Below are positions 5,631 through 52,210 of a stretch of DNA of 64,000 bases, piece after piece. Each line of letters begins with the position of its first letter. Position 1 is the stretch's first letter. The DNA comes from Alphaproteobacteria bacterium. Lineage in GTDB: Bacteria; Pseudomonadota; Alphaproteobacteria; RF32; CAG-239. The notes below the pieces were generated by a model. That model saw only the letters and a list, made by a program, of their open reading frames with translations. It was not told the origin of the DNA and did no database searches. The translations under genes and the position numbers were made by a program. Location of the stretch: the NCBI GenBank assembly GCA_017626035.1, contig JAGAJR010000017.1, forward strand, positions 4,900 to 68,899, written 5' to 3'.

Positions 5631-5730
5631 GCCTAACCAGGACATAAACACAAAAAATGTGTTGTAAAAGAACGGAAAAATCAGTATAAAAAGATAATTT
5701 AAAAAATATGCTTGGATTTTAAATAATTAA

Positions 5731-11212: not shown

Positions 11213-11896
11213 TTGACAAATTTGTCTAAAAAAGATATTTTAGTTGTAATTCTATTAAGCATTATCACTAAATTTATCTATAAGCCTATGTTTAAAACAG
11301 CCACTGAGATTCAGGTGAATGACAGTATCCTGGCTCAAAAGAAAAAGATTTGTTACAAAGATGTTCTTGCCGTGGTAACGGAAACCTTAAGGGAGCGAAA
11401 ATTTTACATTCAAAACGTTTCGTTGGTTTGGTTAAGGTTTTCGCAAGAGGTTGAGCCGTTTGTCCATTGCAGAAGTCCGCGAACAGACGGGTTCCATGCC
11501 GGTTATTTTCTGGATTTGCGTCCTTATGAAGGGAACGTGATATTCGGATTTTATCAGCCGTTTTCCGGAAAAGTTTATATCATAGAGAGCAAGTGTCTCT
11601 GCGATGCGGAAGCGGTTGTCGGCAATTTGCAGTTTCCGCTGGCTTTTCGAAAAACGCAGACAAGACGGACGTCGAACGAGTATTTTGACGTTAAACGGTT
11701 GTCCCGGTGCTTCAAAGTTGGTCGGAAATGTTTCTCCTTCAATTATGTGCTGACGGCATGTGAAGACAGGGAAGTTGTGAAAACCGTGGTTTCCACGCCT
11801 TCGTCTTTGGCGGAAGACGCCTTTTATGAAGAAGAGATTCTTACGGACATACAGCGTAACAGCCCGATGTTTTTTAATAAATTTTATCAAATTTGA
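11213..11896 (+). CDS. hypothetical protein with N-terminal membrane anchor, Cys-rich
   Basis: ORF begins (TTG) directly after the pmbA stop; hydrophobic N-terminus ILVVILLSIITKFIY; no recognizable family. Confidence 0.45.
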   Translation: MTNLSKKDILVVILLSIITKFIYKPMFKTATEIQVNDSILAQKKKICYKDVLAVVTETLRERKFYIQNVSLVWLRFSQEVEPFVHCRSPRTDGFHAGYFLDLRPYEGNVIFGFYQPFSGKVYIIESKCLCDAEAVVGNLQFPLAFRKTQTRRTSNEYFDVKRLSRCFKVGRKCFSFNYVLTACEDREVVKTVVSTPSSLAEDAFYEEEILTDIQRNSPMFFNKFYQI

Positions 11897-15350: not shown

Positions 15351-15436
15351 GCGGCCGTGGCGAAATTGGTAGACGCGTAACGTTGAGGTCGTTATGAGCT
15401 AAGCTCATGGAAGTTCGAGTCTTCTCGGCCGCACCA
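15351..15436 (+). tRNA. tRNA-Leu (anticodon GAG)
   Basis: Type II tRNA with long variable arm, anticodon loop TTGAGGT, encoded CCA. Confidence 0.9.
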
Positions 15437-15507
15437 AAAAAGCCCCTCTGAATGAGGGGCTTTTTTGGTGCGGAGAAGACTATGACGTCAAAGATGTAAC
15501 ATTCGCC
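15436..15507 (+). repeat. 72-bp direct repeat copy 1 (terminator hairpin plus inverted tRNA-Leu 3'-end fragment)
   Basis: Repeated at 15657-15727 with 2 compensatory mismatches in the hairpin; contains ggtgcggagaagac, a near-reverse-complement of the tRNA 3' end. Confidence 0.8.
15437..15467 (+). terminator. rho-independent terminator after tRNA-Leu
   Basis: GCCCCTC-tgaat-GAGGGGC hairpin followed by T6. Confidence 0.8.
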
Positions 15508-15656
15508 AGAATAACTGTCGTTTATTTCGGCTCATTAACATCTCAACGATTGGTTCGCAAAAAATCCAAATCGTTGGATTTTTTTCTCCCAATTCTCGGC
15601 CGCATTGAGATGAATTGTTGAATCTTGCAAAAAGTGAAATTTATACAACCAGATTC

Positions 15657-15727
15657 AAAAAGCTCCTCTGAGTGAGGGGCTTTTTTGGTGCGGAGAAGAC
15701 TATGACGTCAAAGATGTAACATTCGCC
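15657..15727 (+). repeat. 72-bp direct repeat copy 2
   Basis: See copy 1; GCTCCTC-tgagt-GAGGGGC hairpin followed by T6. Confidence 0.8.
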
Positions 15728-15780
15728 GTGACAATAATAAAAAATCCTTCTTTTGAAGGATTTTTATTATTGGAAATGAA

Positions 15781-16377
15781 TTATTCAGAGGAAGTTGTAA
15801 TATTGGTTAGGACATGTGCAAGATTGACGGCTCCGGTTGTTTTGTTGATTGTTTGTGTTAATTTTTCTTCAGACAATCCGCTCAGTTCGGATAAAGAAGA
15901 AATATATTCTTTGTTTTTTTGTTGTGTAGCCGCTTCAATTTTCAGTTCACTGTAATTGAACAAGGCAAAACGTCTGACGGCGACATCTTTTTTTATTTGT
16001 TTTAATTCAGCACTTTTTAAATTTGATTTTTCCATATCAATATAAACGCCGTCTTTATTATATTGCCACATTCCGCCGGTTGCAACATCCGTCAGCCAAC
16101 TTGGCCAAAAAGTCAGATTTAATATAGCTATTTTACTGAAATTGGAACGTATCACGATTTGTTTATCGTCATATCCTGTTTTTTTAGCTGTAACGATTGC
16201 AGTTCCTGATTTTCTTTCCATAGGATATACGCATGGTGTTTTGCAAATTTCTAAACCATCAACGTAAACTTTGACTCCTTTGATATTAGAATCAAAACTT
16301 ACATCTTGATTGGAACTATTGAATAATGTTCCGCAAGCCCCTAAAATTAATGTAAACAATAAAATTATTTTTTTCAT
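15781..16377 (-). CDS. putative lipoprotein
   Basis: MKKIILLFTLILGAC lipobox signal peptide; no recognizable family; low GC. Confidence 0.6.
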   Translation of the reverse strand: MKKIILLFTLILGACGTLFNSSNQDVSFDSNIKGVKVYVDGLEICKTPCVYPMERKSGTAIVTAKKTGYDDKQIVIRSNFSKIAILNLTFWPSWLTDVATGGMWQYNKDGVYIDMEKSNLKSAELKQIKKDVAVRRFALFNYSELKIEAATQQKNKEYISSLSELSGLSEEKLTQTINKTTGAVNLAHVLTNITTSSE

Positions 16378-16718
16378 AAATTCAAACATCCTTTAACAAG
16401 TTAAACAAAACCCGCCGAAAAGGGCGGGCGGATGTTCGAAAACCATTGAATGTTATGGCTCGGCTTATTTAGCACATAGCCTTATTTAGCCGACATCCAC
16501 CCTCAGGTAGAAATCGACATAAATATTTTAAGTCGTTATGTAACGACTACATTCACAAGGGTTTTCGACGCCCTGAGCGGAATATTGGAGTGTTCCGCTT
16601 GTTTGAAAGAGTAGAAGAGATTTTGATAGAAATCAAGTTAAAATATTTGAATAAATCTTTTATTGAAAATTAGGAGATTTTCTGTCATTTATAATATATT
16701 ATTTTATGGGAGGCGGGT

Positions 16719-17585
16719 ATGAGCAGAGCAAAATTTTCAATTGTGTTTGCGGTAATGGTGTTTTTTATTCCTAAAGTTTGTGATGCCGGATTAAATGAAT
16801 TGATTGTTGACAAGACGCAAGAAATTACCAAAGAGATGGGATTTTCCGACCAGTTCCTTGAAAATTTGAAGGATTGCAAACCTTTTCAGGAAAGCCGCAG
16901 TTATAACGGAATAGAGGCCGTTTATGAGATAAAGGGCAGGGATGAAGACGGAAACTGCATTATTGTTTCCAACGGCAACCATGAAAAGATTCAAGTTGTT
17001 TCGACCTGTAAATTTGACAAAGATATTCTGGATTTGTTTTACCACTCTCAAGTTGAAGTCAGAAAGTTGATTGCCAATGCAAGTTCTGTCGAAGAAATTA
17101 TCGGAAATGAGAATTATTTGTTGGCCGGAGGTTTAATGATGAATGATGAACTTTGCCGCAATGAACGTTCTGAATATGATCCGACCAAAGAGTTGCGGGA
17201 AAAATTGGCTAAATGTGAACCGTATCAAGATGTGGAGCGGACGGACCGTTATGAAATTATTCGGGATATAGACGGCAGGATTGGAAATGTCTGCCGTTAT
17301 ACGATGCAAACGATAACCAAAGCCCCAAAAGAGGAAGAGTTACGGAAACTGCTCGGAGACGAAACTTTTGAAAGTATGAAAGATACTCTGCTTAAAGATA
17401 TAAGTATGACAACTAAATGTGCCTTTACGCCTGAGGGGCTGCAGAAATATATTTCTCTTTTGGAGAAGACGGCAATTCCGTCAGGAGATGCTTATGATTT
17501 GTCGTATATGGATAATTTGCGGGAGTCGAATAAGGAAGCGGCTGATTTTTTGCTTGAGACGGAAGAGTGTAAAACTTACCAGTAA
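16719..17585 (+). CDS. secreted protein with internal Cys-containing repeats (C-K/E-P-F/Y-Q)
   Basis: Signal peptide MSRAKFSIVFAVMVFFIPKVCDAG; repeated LKDCKPFQE / LAKCEPYQD / ETEECKTYQ modules; low GC. Confidence 0.6.
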   Translation: MSRAKFSIVFAVMVFFIPKVCDAGLNELIVDKTQEITKEMGFSDQFLENLKDCKPFQESRSYNGIEAVYEIKGRDEDGNCIIVSNGNHEKIQVVSTCKFDKDILDLFYHSQVEVRKLIANASSVEEIIGNENYLLAGGLMMNDELCRNERSEYDPTKELREKLAKCEPYQDVERTDRYEIIRDIDGRIGNVCRYTMQTITKAPKEEELRKLLGDETFESMKDTLLKDISMTTKCAFTPEGLQKYISLLEKTAIPSGDAYDLSYMDNLRESNKEAADFLLETEECKTYQ

Positions 17586-17702
17586 ATTGTCAGATTGCAA
17601 AAGCGGAAATTGTGCATATTTTAATTTTTGTCTTTCAGAAAAAGCGATAACAGATTAAAAAGACGTTAGTTTAGTTGAGGTTTTTTATTTTAGGGAGGTT
17701 GT

Positions 17703-20043: not shown

Positions 20044-21367
20044 GTTTTGGGCATATTTCTTAGGGCTGGTGTTTTGTGTCGGTTCTGCCGAGGCAAAACT
20101 TTTTGGTGCCGAAGATTTTTATCTTGATAACGGAATGCAGGTTATTGTCGTTTCCAACCATAAAGCTCCGATTATCCGGCAGATGGTTTGGTATAAGGCA
20201 GGGAGCACTGATGAGCCTTTGGGCAAAGGCGGGGTGGCTCACTTGTTGGAACATTTAATGTTCAGGGGAACAAAAAAGGTTAAAGATTCCGAGTTTAACC
20301 GGATTGTTACGGAAAACGGTGCAGAAAGCAACGCTTTTACTTCTTTGGATTATACCGCTTATTATGAAGTTATGGATATCAGCAAGCTGGAACTGGCTAT
20401 GCTGTTGGAAGCCGACAGAATGCGGAATTTGGACATTAGCCGGGAAAGTTTTGAAAAAGAACGGGATATTGTTTTTCAGGAAAGAAAACAGGTTGTGGAA
20501 AATAATCCGGCATCTTATTTTTCAGAGACTTTTCGCCGTTATTTGTGGCAGGAACATCCTTATTCCCGTCCGGTTACCGGAATGCCTGAGGAAATTCAGA
20601 ATCTGACTTTGGACGATGTTTATGATTTTTATCGTCGTTATTATGCTCCGAACAATGCCATTTTGGTTTTGTCGGGAGATATTGACGTTGAGACGGCCAA
20701 AGAGTTGTCCGTTAAATATTTCGGAGGTTTGAAGCCGACAAAAAATATTACAAAAACTTCTTTTCCGGTTTTGGATAAATTTTCTAAAACATATTTTGAA
20801 ATGAAACTACCCCGGATTAACGCGGTGCGGATGACTCAGAGTTGTTTGGCTCCGTCGTATAATACCGATAAGAGCCGTATTTATGCTCTGGCGGTTTTTT
20901 CCAGATATTTGGGAGAAGGCGAAACATCGAAACTGTATAAGAAACTGGTCGTGGAGCGGAAATCGGCGTTGAGCGTGTCGGCGTCTTATGATTTTGCATC
21001 TCGGAGTTATGGCAGTTTTACCGTTTCGGCACTTCCGAAAGAAAATATTGATGCCGATGAATTTCAGAAAGAGTTGAAACAGGCAATTGCCGAAGCCGTT
21101 GCTGAAATTACGTTGGATGAGATTGAAAATACCAAACAAAAAATGTTGGCCGGACAAGTTTATTTGTTAGACAATCCTAATGATGCGGCTTATATTGCCG
21201 GTTCGCTGGCCGGTATCGGAATGAGTTTGGAGGATATTGAAAATCAGGCGGACTATATTCGCAGCGTGAATTATAAAGATGTGATTGCGGCGGCAAAGGA
21301 TTTGTTTGAAAATTCATCTTGTGTTTTGGGTGTGTTAAAGCCTGCCGAAGGAGGTGAAAATGTCTAG
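20033..21367 (+). CDS. M16 family zinc peptidase, active subunit (HxxEH present), secreted
   Basis: GVAHLLEHLMFRGT inverted zinc-binding motif; N-terminal signal peptide. Confidence 0.85.
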   Translation: MKIRFWAYFLGLVFCVGSAEAKLFGAEDFYLDNGMQVIVVSNHKAPIIRQMVWYKAGSTDEPLGKGGVAHLLEHLMFRGTKKVKDSEFNRIVTENGAESNAFTSLDYTAYYEVMDISKLELAMLLEADRMRNLDISRESFEKERDIVFQERKQVVENNPASYFSETFRRYLWQEHPYSRPVTGMPEEIQNLTLDDVYDFYRRYYAPNNAILVLSGDIDVETAKELSVKYFGGLKPTKNITKTSFPVLDKFSKTYFEMKLPRINAVRMTQSCLAPSYNTDKSRIYALAVFSRYLGEGETSKLYKKLVVERKSALSVSASYDFASRSYGSFTVSALPKENIDADEFQKELKQAIAEAVAEITLDEIENTKQKMLAGQVYLLDNPNDAAYIAGSLAGIGMSLEDIENQADYIRSVNYKDVIAAAKDLFENSSCVLGVLKPAEGGENV

Positions 21368-26885: not shown

Positions 26886-26968
26886 AGAAGTGATGATTTT
26901 TTGAAAAAAAGTTCTTGACCTTTTGCGGGGTTTTGAGTAAAAGCTTTTTGTAACCATAATGAACATAT

Positions 26969-27067
26969 GGAGAGGTGGCAGAGTGGTTTAATGCAGCGGT
27001 CTTGGAATCGCAGATGGCTGAAAGCCCAAACCGTCGAGTATAAACGAAGTTTATGACGGTTTTCTCC
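26969..27067 (+). pseudogene. degenerate tRNA-Ser-like sequence (5' 36 nt identical to tRNA-Ser-TGA, rest divergent, no T-arm)
   Basis: tatGGAGAGGTGGCAGAGTGGTTTAATGCAGCGGTCTTG shared with 27090-27128; downstream part lacks the GTTCGAATC T-loop. Confidence 0.5.
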
Positions 27068-27092
27068 AAAATTATTGTTCATAGCACCTTAT

Positions 27093-27182
27093 GGAGAGGT
27101 GGCAGAGTGGTTTAATGCAGCGGTCTTGAAAACCGTCGAGGGTGCGAGCCCTCCCAGAGTTCGAATCTCTGCCTCTCCGCCA
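27093..27182 (+). tRNA. tRNA-Ser (anticodon TGA)
   Basis: Type II tRNA, anticodon loop CTTGAAA, long variable arm, encoded CCA. Confidence 0.9.
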
Positions 27183-27362
27183 TTAAAAGCCGTTTCAATT
27201 TGAAACGGCTTTTTTGTATTTAAGGGAATGTTTATGGCGGAGCGACTTACACGTCGCAAGGCTTGTGTTCGTCGGGCAGAGCTCGTCCTCTTGGGTATCT
27301 AGCTTCGTTGCGAAACAATAAGTTTCTAACTCAGCAAGATATTCCAAGAACTTGCAGATAAA
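27172..27362 (+). repeat. tandem repeat unit 1 (tRNA-Ser 3' 11 nt + terminator + 150-nt segment with 22-codon mini-ORF)
   Basis: 191 nt repeated at 27396-27586 with a single mismatch; period 224 bp. Confidence 0.85.
27185..27216 (+). terminator. rho-independent terminator after tRNA-Ser
   Basis: AGCCGTTTCAA-t-TTGAAACGGCT hairpin followed by T6. Confidence 0.85.
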
Positions 27363-27386
27363 AAACTAACGTAGGTTAGTTTTTTA
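27361..27386 (+). terminator. hairpin plus T-run between the tandem units
   Basis: AACTAAC-gtag-GTTAGTT hairpin followed by T5. Confidence 0.55.
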
Positions 27387-27395
27387 CTTAGCGTT

Positions 27396-27586
27396 CCTCT
27401 CCGCCATTAAAAGCCGTTTCAATTTGAAACGGCTTTTTTGTATTTAAGGGAATGTTTATGGCGGAGCGACTTACACGTCGCAGGGCTTGTGTTCGTCGGG
27501 CAGAGCTCGTCCTCTTGGGTATCTAGCTTCGTTGCGAAACAATAAGTTTCTAACTCAGCAAGATATTCCAAGAACTTGCAGATAAA
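27396..27586 (+). repeat. tandem repeat unit 2
   Basis: See unit 1; begins with CCTCTCCGCCA, a copy of the tRNA-Ser 3' end. Confidence 0.85.
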
Positions 27587-27735
27587 TAGGGTGGCTATCT
27601 CGGTAAGTTTGTATTTTCATATTGATACTACAATGTTTTTATATGTGAATGACAAAGAGGTATGAGGGGATATTCTTTTTGCTTGAATTCTCTCTCGGCT
27701 GTTATATTCTTGTTTGCGGACGGAAGGAGCGGAAT

Positions 27736-51867: not shown

Positions 51868-51955
51868 GGAGAGTTGGCAGAGTGGTAATGCAGCGGATTG
51901 CTAATCCGTCATCGTGAATAGCGATGCACAGGTTCGAGTCCTGTACTCTCCGCCA
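51868..51955 (+). tRNA. tRNA-Ser (anticodon GCT)
   Basis: Type II tRNA, anticodon loop TTGCTAA, long variable arm, encoded CCA. Confidence 0.9.
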
Positions 51956-51963
51956 TTAAAAAA

Positions 51964-51995
51964 AGCGGTATCCTTAATGGATACTGCTTTTTTTA
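51964..51995 (+). terminator. rho-independent terminator after tRNA-Ser-GCT
   Basis: AGCGGTATCC-ttaat-GGATACTGCT hairpin followed by T7. Confidence 0.8.
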
Positions 51996-52159
51996 TGTTT
52001 GAATGAAGAGACAGGCTCGAACCGAGAGGCTCGCTAAGCAAAAAATACAATGATTTGTATTTTTTGTCTGCAAGAGCATAGATGGTCTTATTGAGCAAAG
52101 GAAGTGTAACGACTGCGGCGAGATTAGAGCTCTATGAGAAAGAGCAGTGAAACTGCGTA

Positions 52160-52210
52160 GTCCTGTACTCTCCGCCATTAAAAGCCGTTCCTTTGGGAGC
52201 GGCTTTTTGT
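52160..52210 (+). repeat. displaced copy of the tRNA-Ser-GCT 3' end (19 nt) followed by terminator hairpin
   Basis: AGTCCTGTACTCTCCGCCATTAAAA identical to 51937-51961; followed by AGCCGTTCC-tttg-GGAGCGGCT plus T-run. Confidence 0.7.

Follow-up and report, generated by a model that had tools for sequence, protein, structure and literature searches.

Folded non-coding units that form a family at the ends of tRNA genes in uncultured gut Alphaproteobacteria

The tRNA-Ser(TGA) locus and its repeated unit

The DNA analysed here is a stretch of 64,000 nucleotides (nt) from contig JAGAJR010000017.1 of an alphaproteobacterium, and this whole stretch is referred to as the window. An intact tRNA-Ser(TGA) gene was located at positions 27093–27182 using ARAGORN, and the Rfam tRNA model gave a score of 58 bits at the same place. 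The gene is followed by a folded non-coding unit, which is the subject of this study. The repeat search of the window showed a 191-nt direct repeat (27172–27362 and 27396–27586) with 99% identity, one mismatch, and a spacing of 224 nt, as well as a 42-nt repeat (26966–27007 and 27090–27131) with 98% identity. A reading made from the letters of the DNA alone (the sequence-only reading) had described the longer repeat with the same coordinates and period, and the repeat search, ARAGORN, and Rfam agree with it.

The first period begins inside the tRNA gene. Its core, CCTCTCCGCCA, represents the final 11 nt of the tRNA (27172–27182), and this 11-mer occurs in the window only at 27172 and 27396, against a chance expectation of 0.05 matches. 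The core is followed on the forward strand, on which all features of this locus are given, by a terminator-type hairpin (T1) with a 13-bp stem and a T-run (27185–27213), repeated as T2 at 27409–27437. Then comes an inverted repeat, the anticore TGGCGGAG (27235–27242), which is the complement of the tRNA's final 8 nt. Hairpin P1 (27243–27274) is built of 4 bp, a pyrimidine internal loop, another 4 bp, and the loop GTCGCAAGGCTT, and 6 of its 8 pairs show compensatory changes; the internal loop has TT opposite TC in the window copy and TC opposite TC in most other species. Sequence comparison revealed the invariant motif GGGCAGAGC, which contains GGCAGAG, at 27274–27282. It is followed by hairpin P2 (27296–27341), in which all 7 modelled pairs have compensatory changes, and by hairpin P3 (27348–27395) with the conserved foot TTGCAGA...CTTAGC and 19 pairs, 10 of them with compensatory changes. 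A second copy of the core, CCTCTCCGCCA at 27396–27406, was identified by the repeat search; it closes the first unit and opens the second period.

The second period (27396–27586) runs from the core through T2, the anticore, P1, and P2 into the first part of P3, where it is broken off after GCAGATAAA. It is without the top of P3, CTTAGC, and a third core, and it matches only positions 1–123 of the unit hidden Markov model (HMM). The array of the window therefore amounts to one complete unit and one 3'-truncated unit, or about 1.85 periods. The 33 nt between the copies (27363–27395) had been taken for an extra hairpin terminator; they are instead the upper part of P3 together with CTTAGC, both of which are kept in every complete unit elsewhere. 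A 24-aa open reading frame (ORF) at 27228–27302 was considered as a possible small protein and rejected, since it starts in a spacer that is found only in the window and is absent from the units of other species, and is thus not conserved.

The locus is flanked by ordinary genes, those for MutL and a 3-methyladenine glycosylase (PF02245) on one side and for an Ogt-type methyltransferase and a major facilitator superfamily (MFS) transporter on the other. Two independent metagenome contigs of the same species (L001 and L002) have the same layout as the window, with both copies identical. Two short-read contigs of this species (L003 and L004) stop within the repeat shared by the tRNA and the upstream pseudo-copy described below, at about window positions 26995–27130, which looks like an assembly break.

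A conserved unit family and its occupied and empty sites

Loci of relatives were collected by scanning one genome per species with the glycosylase protein. This yielded 45 loci (L005–L049), all from uncultured gut Alphaproteobacteria, many of them metagenome-assembled genomes labelled 'Azospirillum sp.' In about half of the 45 loci a tRNA-Ser(tga) gene lies within 4 kb of the glycosylase gene, and homologous units, found here independently through the glycosylase gene, directly follow it in L008, L009, L010, L011, L014, L015, and L019. A metagenome scan for GGGCAGAGCT...CTCTCCGCCA and then nhmmer added about 25 further loci, and the family comprises roughly nine species-level variants. The near-identity of the two window copies had been read as a sign of a recent event, and it does fit recent duplication or gene conversion. 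The unit itself is no newcomer: it belongs to an old, structurally conserved family that sits at the same tRNA in about nine lineages and has relatives at all four tRNAs of the window. Nor is it private to this genome, as homologous units occur in other species and at other tRNAs.

All complete units share one order of parts, namely the core CTCTCCGCCA, the terminator hairpin, the anticore (T)GGCGGAG, P1, GGGCAGAGC, P2, ATCATTGG, P3, two variable bases, and the core again. The sequence of the terminator-type hairpin differs in every lineage and the hairpin is always at that position after the tRNA, while GGGCAGAGC is invariant in eight species found independently through the glycosylase gene. 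A complete unit measures about 215 bp, is non-coding, lies beyond the tRNA terminator, and ends in a sense copy of the tRNA's final 10–12 nt. Its start is the complement of the tRNA's final 8–18 nt, to which the Ser and Leu units add 7–9 nt complementing the bases just upstream; in the Ser unit, these two complementary stretches are separated by P1.

The fold was examined for covariation using 12 distinct units (alignment A3) and 40 proposed pairs, with 3' partners slid by 1–3 columns and 500 shuffles as the controls. Within the 40 pairs, 96.9% of the cells were paired, compared with 42–51% in the slid controls, and changes on both sides of a pair that preserve pairing were seen in 23 pairs, compared with 2–6 in the slid controls. 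The covariation score was reached by none of the 500 shuffles. P1, P2, and P3 are each supported by covariation, and the P3 foot holds three G-U pairs, conserved among units, that mark the unit-sense strand as the folding strand. P1 and P3 are strand-specific hairpins near the unit ends, and the sequences of their stems are not kept between species. A helix predicted between GGCAGAG and the 3' core never varies among the aligned units, so it carries no covariation information. The window unit folds at -65.5 kcal/mol (z = -5.98). The P1 loop TCGCAAGGCT is common to Ser and Ala units, and the P3 foot motif is common to the units at tRNA-Ala and tRNA-Ser(GCT). The structure of the unit is under selection.

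When the window region and four relatives were compared with Rfam 15 at permissive thresholds, only the tRNA passed; other models, including those of transfer-messenger RNA (tmRNA), T-box, 6S, and HEARO, stayed far below their gathering thresholds. A tmRNA, including its permuted two-piece form, was rejected in addition because ARAGORN reported none and because the unit has no T-arm beside the 3' strand. An inverted tRNA pseudogene was rejected as well: GGGCAGAGCTTTCAATTC resembles an antisense T-loop and T-stem, and neither a matching 5' strand of the T-stem nor other arms were found by eye. A non-exhaustive search of the literature on miniature elements at tRNA genes, bridge RNAs involving tRNA, and structured RNAs after tRNA genes gave no description of such units. 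They represent a previously undescribed family of folded non-coding units of about 200 bp at tRNA gene ends.

Comparison of relatives showed that the unit is a discrete segment. L010 has one unit, placed between the end of the tRNA and another CTCTCCGCCA; the terminator ATTCATATTGAGCCCGATGAAAGTCGGGC comes after this second core. The same ATTCATATTGAGCCCGATGAAAGTCGGGC directly follows the tRNA in the unit-less relative L017, which is therefore an exact empty site for the L010 unit. This pair bears out the part of the sequence-only reading that proposed an insertion with copies of the tRNA 3' end at its boundaries. The accompanying expectation of similarity to attachment (att) regions of phages or integrative and conjugative elements was not borne out, as blastn of the unit against 50,697 phage and 72,556 plasmid records gave no match. 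The unit is absent in the close relatives L017, L005, L012, L036, and L020–L049.

The variation in copy number that had been predicted among strains was found between loci with identical flanks. There are two units in L131 and one in L148, two in L109 and L130 and one in L019 and L128, and at least four in the contig behind L092/L142 and one in L110; across lineages, a tRNA-Ser(TGA) locus carries from one to at least four tandem units. Every array closes with a partial period of variable length. It consists of the core alone in L010, L019, and L131 and of the core with the terminator in L110, and it extends over about 25 nt of the unit in L100 and L107, 56 nt in L009, 74 nt in L015, 109 nt in L124, L143, and L098, and 191 of 224 nt in the window.

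Fragments of tRNA sequence were also seen beyond the terminators. In L015 (4897–5001 and 5168–5343) and downstream of tRNA-Ser in L016 and L018, antisense and sense pieces of the tRNA-Ser T-arm (e.g., TTCGAACTCTGGG and GAGAGGCAGA) occur in scrambled form, either in the space from terminator to anticore or, at sites with no unit, behind the terminator. A short complement of the tRNA 3' end stands right after the terminator T-run, without a unit body, in L036 (about 5640–5655), L131 (about 11565–11580), and L189 (about 20416–20421). In this clade, tRNA trailers in general may have such a complement after the terminator.

Units at other tRNA genes and at 5' gene ends

A covariance model was built from the Ser(TGA) units and run over the 64-kb window with filters off. 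Its only significant matches were at four tRNA loci, with scores of 134.7 and 73.9 bits for the two Ser(TGA) copies. The unit after tRNA-Ala(GGC) occupies 690–891 on the forward strand (model match 720–894, 76.7 bits, E = 3e-21) and ends in TTACCTCCACC (881–891), which is a copy of tRNA-Ala bases 678–688. At the 5' end of the same gene, a 28-nt direct repeat (444–471 and 607–634) surrounds an inverted unit on the reverse strand (444–634), whose P3 and CTTAGC were matched at 516–470 (31.9 bits, E = 5e-8).

The trailer of tRNA-Ser(GCT) also holds an inverted unit. Here, a 25-nt repeat of the tRNA end (51937–51961 and 52159–52183) encloses the terminator and a unit on the reverse strand (51937–52183), with the model match at 52180–52017 (49.4 bits, E = 3e-13). 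The 22 nt CTCTCCGCCATTAAAAGCCGTT, comprising the core and the start of the terminator, are common to 52168–52189, 27173–27194, and 27397–27418, so that the distal repeat of tRNA-Ser(GCT) shares them with the Ser(TGA) units and not with the trailer of its own tRNA. This likeness suggests exchange of sequence between the loci of the two serine tRNAs, 25 kb from one another.

The match in the tRNA-Leu(GAG) trailer (15437–15727, forward strand) is marginal (15.6 bits, E = 0.004). The terminator is followed there by TGGTGCGG and AGAAGAC, which both complement the 3' end of the tRNA, then by a divergent unit ending in TTCTCGGCCGCA, and then by a second partial copy (15657–15727); TTCTCGGCCGCA forms a direct repeat at 15422–15433 and 15593–15604. 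The array is not a clean tandem repeat (spacings of 171 and 220 nt) because 52 nt between the second Leu core and the second copy of the terminator (15605–15656) have no counterpart in the first period. In L189, mgtE directly follows tRNA-Leu(GAG) with no unit (L189 20386–20420, compared with window 15437–17700). The window has about 2.2 kb more after this tRNA, consisting of the units, a gene for a PEGA-domain lipoprotein on the minus strand, and a gene for a 288-aa protein without a Pfam match.

At each tRNA locus of the window, direct repeats of the terminal sequence of its own tRNA, 11–28 nt long, stand 124–224 bp apart. Two of the six window units are inverted relative to the tRNA. The unit at tRNA-Lys(TTT) of another species (L187) is inverted as well; it is preceded by the terminator and an antisense T-arm copy and accompanied by a 70-nt repeat, an arrangement like that at tRNA-Ser(GCT). 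The flank of a viral contig with tRNA-Ala(CGC) (L152) shows the arrangement seen at the 5' end of the window tRNA-Ala. QueH homologues were used as a route to orthologous tRNA-Ala loci; gene order was not kept, and no Ala locus was obtained in this way, although the tRNA-Lys unit of L187 and the unit-less tRNA-Leu of L189 came to light by chance. In 366 kb of relatives' DNA, the model matched only beside tRNAs, except for two weak partial matches to the P3 hairpin. Within the sequence examined, the unit family is found at tRNA genes only.

The complementarity between unit and tRNA was compared for cognate and non-cognate combinations. In the first 85 nt of the Ser unit, TGGCGGAG complements the tRNA's final 8 nt, and GGCAGAG complements a 7-nt stretch (CTCTGCC) ending one base into the core. 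The complements in the Leu unit are TGGTGCGG and GAGAAGACT, and the Ala unit has AAGCGGG alone. Cognate complementarity thus amounts to 8 + 7 nt for Ser and 9 + 8 nt for Leu, compared with 0–8 nt in non-cognate combinations. The signal is solid for Ser and Leu and weak for Ala. As proof of guiding, complementarity was rejected, as chance 7-mers occur in 3 of the 12 non-cognate comparisons and the 7-mer of Ala is no evidence. Anticore and core form an inverted pair of 8 nt in the window and, in the inverted units, of 18 nt; several lineages have it in degenerate form, and it is weak at tRNA-Ala.

Upstream of tRNA-Ser(TGA), the first copy of the 42-nt repeat (26966–27007, forward strand, 98% identity) forms a 5' pseudo-copy of the gene reaching to the anticodon loop. 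The sequence-only reading was right that it shares the 5' part of the gene; the shared stretch itself was redrawn, as it comprises 3 leader bases and 35 tRNA bases before one mismatch. Between the two repeats lies an insert of 82 nt, here called X (27008–27089), which begins with the conserved GAATCGC. After a stretch of 20 nt, X contains AAACCGTCGAG (27028–27038), corresponding to tRNA positions 41–51, and this block pairs with GACGGT (27056–27061) to give a hairpin followed by a T-run. The fold of X as a single sequence is unexceptional (z = -0.99), and no homology of X to the unit covariance model was detectable.

The pseudo-copy had been described as a degenerate copy; plain decay of a tRNA duplicate does not agree with its recurrence in at least six species, where its presence and absence have exact boundaries. 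The 42-nt repeat and the GAATCGC start of the insert are found in L008, L009, L010, L017, and L124 and, in a diverged form, in L015; the 5' repeat is identical over 43–45 nt in L008, L009, L010, and L017, whereas that of L015 has diverged. Species differ in the length of the middle of the insert, whose end is always a hairpin made of sense tRNA from about positions 40–51 with its complement and then a T-run. The close relatives L011 and L012 and the nearest species, L005, lack X exactly, so that L009/L010 and L011/L012 make a pair of filled and empty sites. In the 5' insert of tRNA-Ala, the hairpin is built from tRNA positions 22–30 and varies with the isoacceptor, being GAGCGTTTG in the window and GAGCGAT in L152. 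Because the equivalent insert at tRNA-Ala holds a true inverted unit, the Ser(TGA) pseudo-copy may be read as the 5'-end counterpart of the downstream units, as at tRNA-Ala.

A putative promoter, TTGACC-17 nt-TAAAAG, was read from the sequence upstream of the pseudo-copy (26915–26943, forward strand). It is kept in L005, L009, L010, L015, and others, and a consensus promoter scan marks an overlapping alternative at 26933–26960. In L005, the promoter-like sequence of the window sits directly upstream of the intact tRNA.

Several loci showed that tRNA-Ser(TGA) is a classic integration site. In L005 (4773–5343) and L012 (5170–5600), GGTGTTACAG repeats come after the gene together with a 161-aa ORF whose DUF6538 domain is of a type present at integrase N-termini; the same MFS and SLT genes as in the window are next, with neither the Ogt gene nor a unit. 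This stretch looks like the scar of a conventional integrative element. In L086 (6680–6842), a viral contig of 40 kb has at its end only the 3' half of tRNA-Ser(TGA), from the anticodon stem onwards, and then a unit, which would fit a prophage integrated in the anticodon loop of this gene. In L017 (5332–5595), an IS200-type tnpA follows the perfect palindrome ACTACCGGCTAGGCCGGTAGT just past the tRNA-Ser terminator, and the contig ends inside tnpA. This fragment is the only transposase gene seen near any locus, with none in the window or at any further locus. Viral contigs were scanned three times for motifs, with chance matches only, together with units on the host flanks in L086 and L152, and none inside a viral contig. 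The covariance model did not match the integrase remnant of L005. Extra CTTAGC matches in L124 and L143 were considered as parts of an autonomous version and rejected, since they lie inside a transporter gene.

Origin and possible role of the units

The existence of the family, the tRNA-matched ends, the exact presence/absence boundaries, and the copy-number variation among strains are established. We lean, tentatively and short of calling it probable, towards a non-autonomous, non-coding insertion unit that is aimed at tRNA gene ends and is amplified and lost by recombination between its flanking repeats. This reading is favoured because of the exact filled and empty sites, the occurrence in both orientations and at both gene ends, the frequent truncation, the position behind terminators, and the tRNA-matched ends. 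The units would have entered tRNA gene ends by site-specific insertion that used or copied the terminal sequence of the tRNA, with a partner enzyme presumably supplied from elsewhere in the genome. Each unit would bring a replacement tRNA end and terminator, the tRNA staying intact, and would regenerate the target (core and terminator) upon insertion, hence the direct repeats on its flanks. Such repeats would allow re-insertion, unequal crossing-over, loop-out deletion, and gene conversion, and the outcome would be a number of complete copies and a distal partial copy, as in the window. The pseudo-copy could result from this process at work on the antisense strand at the gene's 5' end, where the 42-bp repeat flanks the 82-bp insert. 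Recombination between flanking repeats can explain the gain, loss, and homogenisation of copies; it does not explain the original arrival.

A number of observations weigh against an insertion unit. No recombinase, transposase, or reverse transcriptase was found among the ORFs and neighbouring genes in or beside the units, and no autonomous (protein-coding) version was seen in any locus. A Pfam scan of ten window proteins of unclear function revealed no domain of a recombinase, transposase, or reverse transcriptase; the remaining window proteins were judged to be housekeeping only from protein sequence and synteny with L189. The flanking repeats are 10–11, 11, 12, 25, 28, and 42 nt long, all of them tRNA-derived, and no fixed staggered cut fits these lengths. 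The units at the other tRNAs (76.7, 49.4, and 15.6 bits, compared with 134.7 bits for Ser(TGA)) are strongly diverged, and therefore there is no sign of recent movement between the loci of one genome. The 7-nt complement of Ala does not go beyond chance level, some lineages have a degenerate anticore (GGCGAAG, TGCGGAG, and GGGCGGGG), and an anticore without a unit body (L036 and the distal flank of L131) indicates that part of the pattern may not depend on the unit. Finally, a structure kept over a long time at orthologous sites fits a host function equally well.

Such a function would be that of a structured small RNA made from the tRNA trailer, with transcription either reading through the first hairpin or starting at a promoter of the unit. 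The 5' segment of this RNA would pair with the tRNA 3' end or with the RNA's own 3' core, and its role would lie in tRNA maturation, quality control, or regulation. Duplicated and truncated copies and the repeats on the flanks would then be by-products of recombination in a repetitive locus. Three hairpins evolving by compensatory change at an orthologous site in about nine lineages argue for such an RNA, as do the conserved single-stranded motifs (GGGCAGAGC, ATCATTGG, and the P1 loop TCGCAAGGCT), the G-U pairs that mark one folding strand, the lack of a mobile-element gene near the units, and the age and divergence of the units at different tRNAs. However, each unit stands behind a strong terminator-type hairpin (13 bp and a T-run) with no promoter evident between hairpin and unit, units are found inverted (two of six in the window and that at tRNA-Lys of L187), truncated copies are common, and close relatives (L017, L005, L012, L036, and L020–L049) live without the unit. 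The position behind the hairpin and the inverted copies speak against processing from a tRNA precursor in at least some units. We consider a host RNA rather unlikely on balance, and it is the strongest competitor of the insertion reading. The tRNA-end direct repeats around the insert and the exact empty sites would also be expected of fused attL/attR arms left at the tRNA 3' end after the deletion of a phage or an island, with the 5' pseudo-copy as the scar of an element that integrated at the anticodon loop. Such integration does occur at this hot spot, as the DUF6538 remnant with its GGTGTTACAG repeats in L005/L012 and the prophage contig of L086 indicate. Nevertheless, one integrase family with one att site does not account for a scaffold that is shared by five different tRNAs and whose ends fit each of them, the unit resembled neither phage, plasmid, or viral-contig DNA nor the L005 element, and neutral scars would not keep their hairpins by compensatory change, which makes integrase scars distinctly improbable. 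The simplest account, a private tandem duplication by slippage or unequal crossing-over with neither element nor function, is suggested by head-to-tail copies with 99–100% identity, and recombination between repeats surely contributes to changes in array size. As a full account it is refuted by the presence of the segment as a conserved family in many species and at other tRNAs, and the A-B-A layout with a conserved 33-nt B segment does not come from a single simple duplication; we give it hardly any credence.

The insertion-unit reading has a more specific form, in which the units are a new class of non-autonomous element homing to tRNA gene ends by nucleic-acid complementarity with the help of a partner enzyme. 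The segments flanking P1, or the tRNA-derived hairpin in the 5' units, would read the tRNA end in single-stranded DNA or RNA, the partner enzyme would insert the unit just outside the gene, and the 3' end of the unit would recreate the target and so give rise to arrays. We regard this form as unlikely. If it were true, target specificity would be programmable, with one scaffold serving many tRNAs.

The units share features with several known systems. With tRNA-integrating islands, phages, and cis-mobilisable elements (CIMEs), they have in common the direct repeats of tRNA ends, the replacement end and terminator, tandem accretion, and exact empty sites. In contrast to these systems, they measure about 200 bp, carry neither an integrase nor arm-type repeats, use one scaffold with matched ends at five or more tRNAs, occur at both 5' and 3' gene ends in both orientations, and keep their hairpins by covariation. 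Like MITEs (miniature transposable elements with inverted repeats) and REPINs (RAYT-mobilised REP doublets), they are small, non-coding, and hairpin-forming, may have short inverted termini (anticore and core), and presumably depend for mobilisation on an enzyme encoded elsewhere; their vertical persistence is REPIN-like. Unlike these elements, they are found only at tRNA gene ends (in 64 kb), have no target duplication of fixed length, end in tRNA copies, and are strongly diverged between loci. The 3' external transcribed spacer (3'ETS) of a tRNA is also a source of small RNAs, of which 3'ETS-leuZ of E. coli is an example. As putative non-coding RNAs in a tRNA trailer, the units resemble this type by sequence position; they differ in standing after the terminator hairpin, in forming arrays, in occurring in both orientations and also at 5' ends, and in carrying copies of tRNA ends.

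The likeness to ORF-less derivatives of IS200/IS605 (palindrome-associated transposable elements, PATEs) lies in the strand-specific end hairpins, the exact excision, the IS200-type tnpA beside the tRNA of L017, and the insertion beside a specific sequence, which may be read by an internal segment near the foot of a hairpin. However, the hairpin stems of the units are not conserved, complementarity extends over 8–17 nt compared with about 4 nt, no Y1 transposase is linked to them, and there is no strand bias in the window. The bridge RNA of IS110 is likewise a structured non-coding RNA of 150–250 nt with a bipartite target-complementary segment split by a hairpin (PMC11208160). In its loops, pairing is to the bottom strand on the 5' side and to the top strand on the 3' side (PMC11208160), whereas both segments of the unit complement the same strand. 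A bridge-RNA architecture was rejected, as this strand rule does not fit; moreover, the units have no adjacent DEDD recombinase, and their repeats are 10–42 nt long compared with a 2-nt core.

Under either reading, the repeats break short-read assemblies at tRNA loci and provide copy-number markers at the level of strains. Calls of tRNA-flanking islands can also go wrong through them, because the island boundary is usually placed at a second copy of the tRNA end. If the units are mobile, they would constitute a compact system of about 200 nt without a protein gene, in which one scaffold with target-matched sequences serves several tRNA targets, and they would point to a mode of insertion so far unrecognised, possibly with nucleic-acid guidance, and to an enzyme that merits a search. 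If they are host RNAs, they would represent a new structured RNA family tied to tRNA genes in abundant uncultured gut bacteria.

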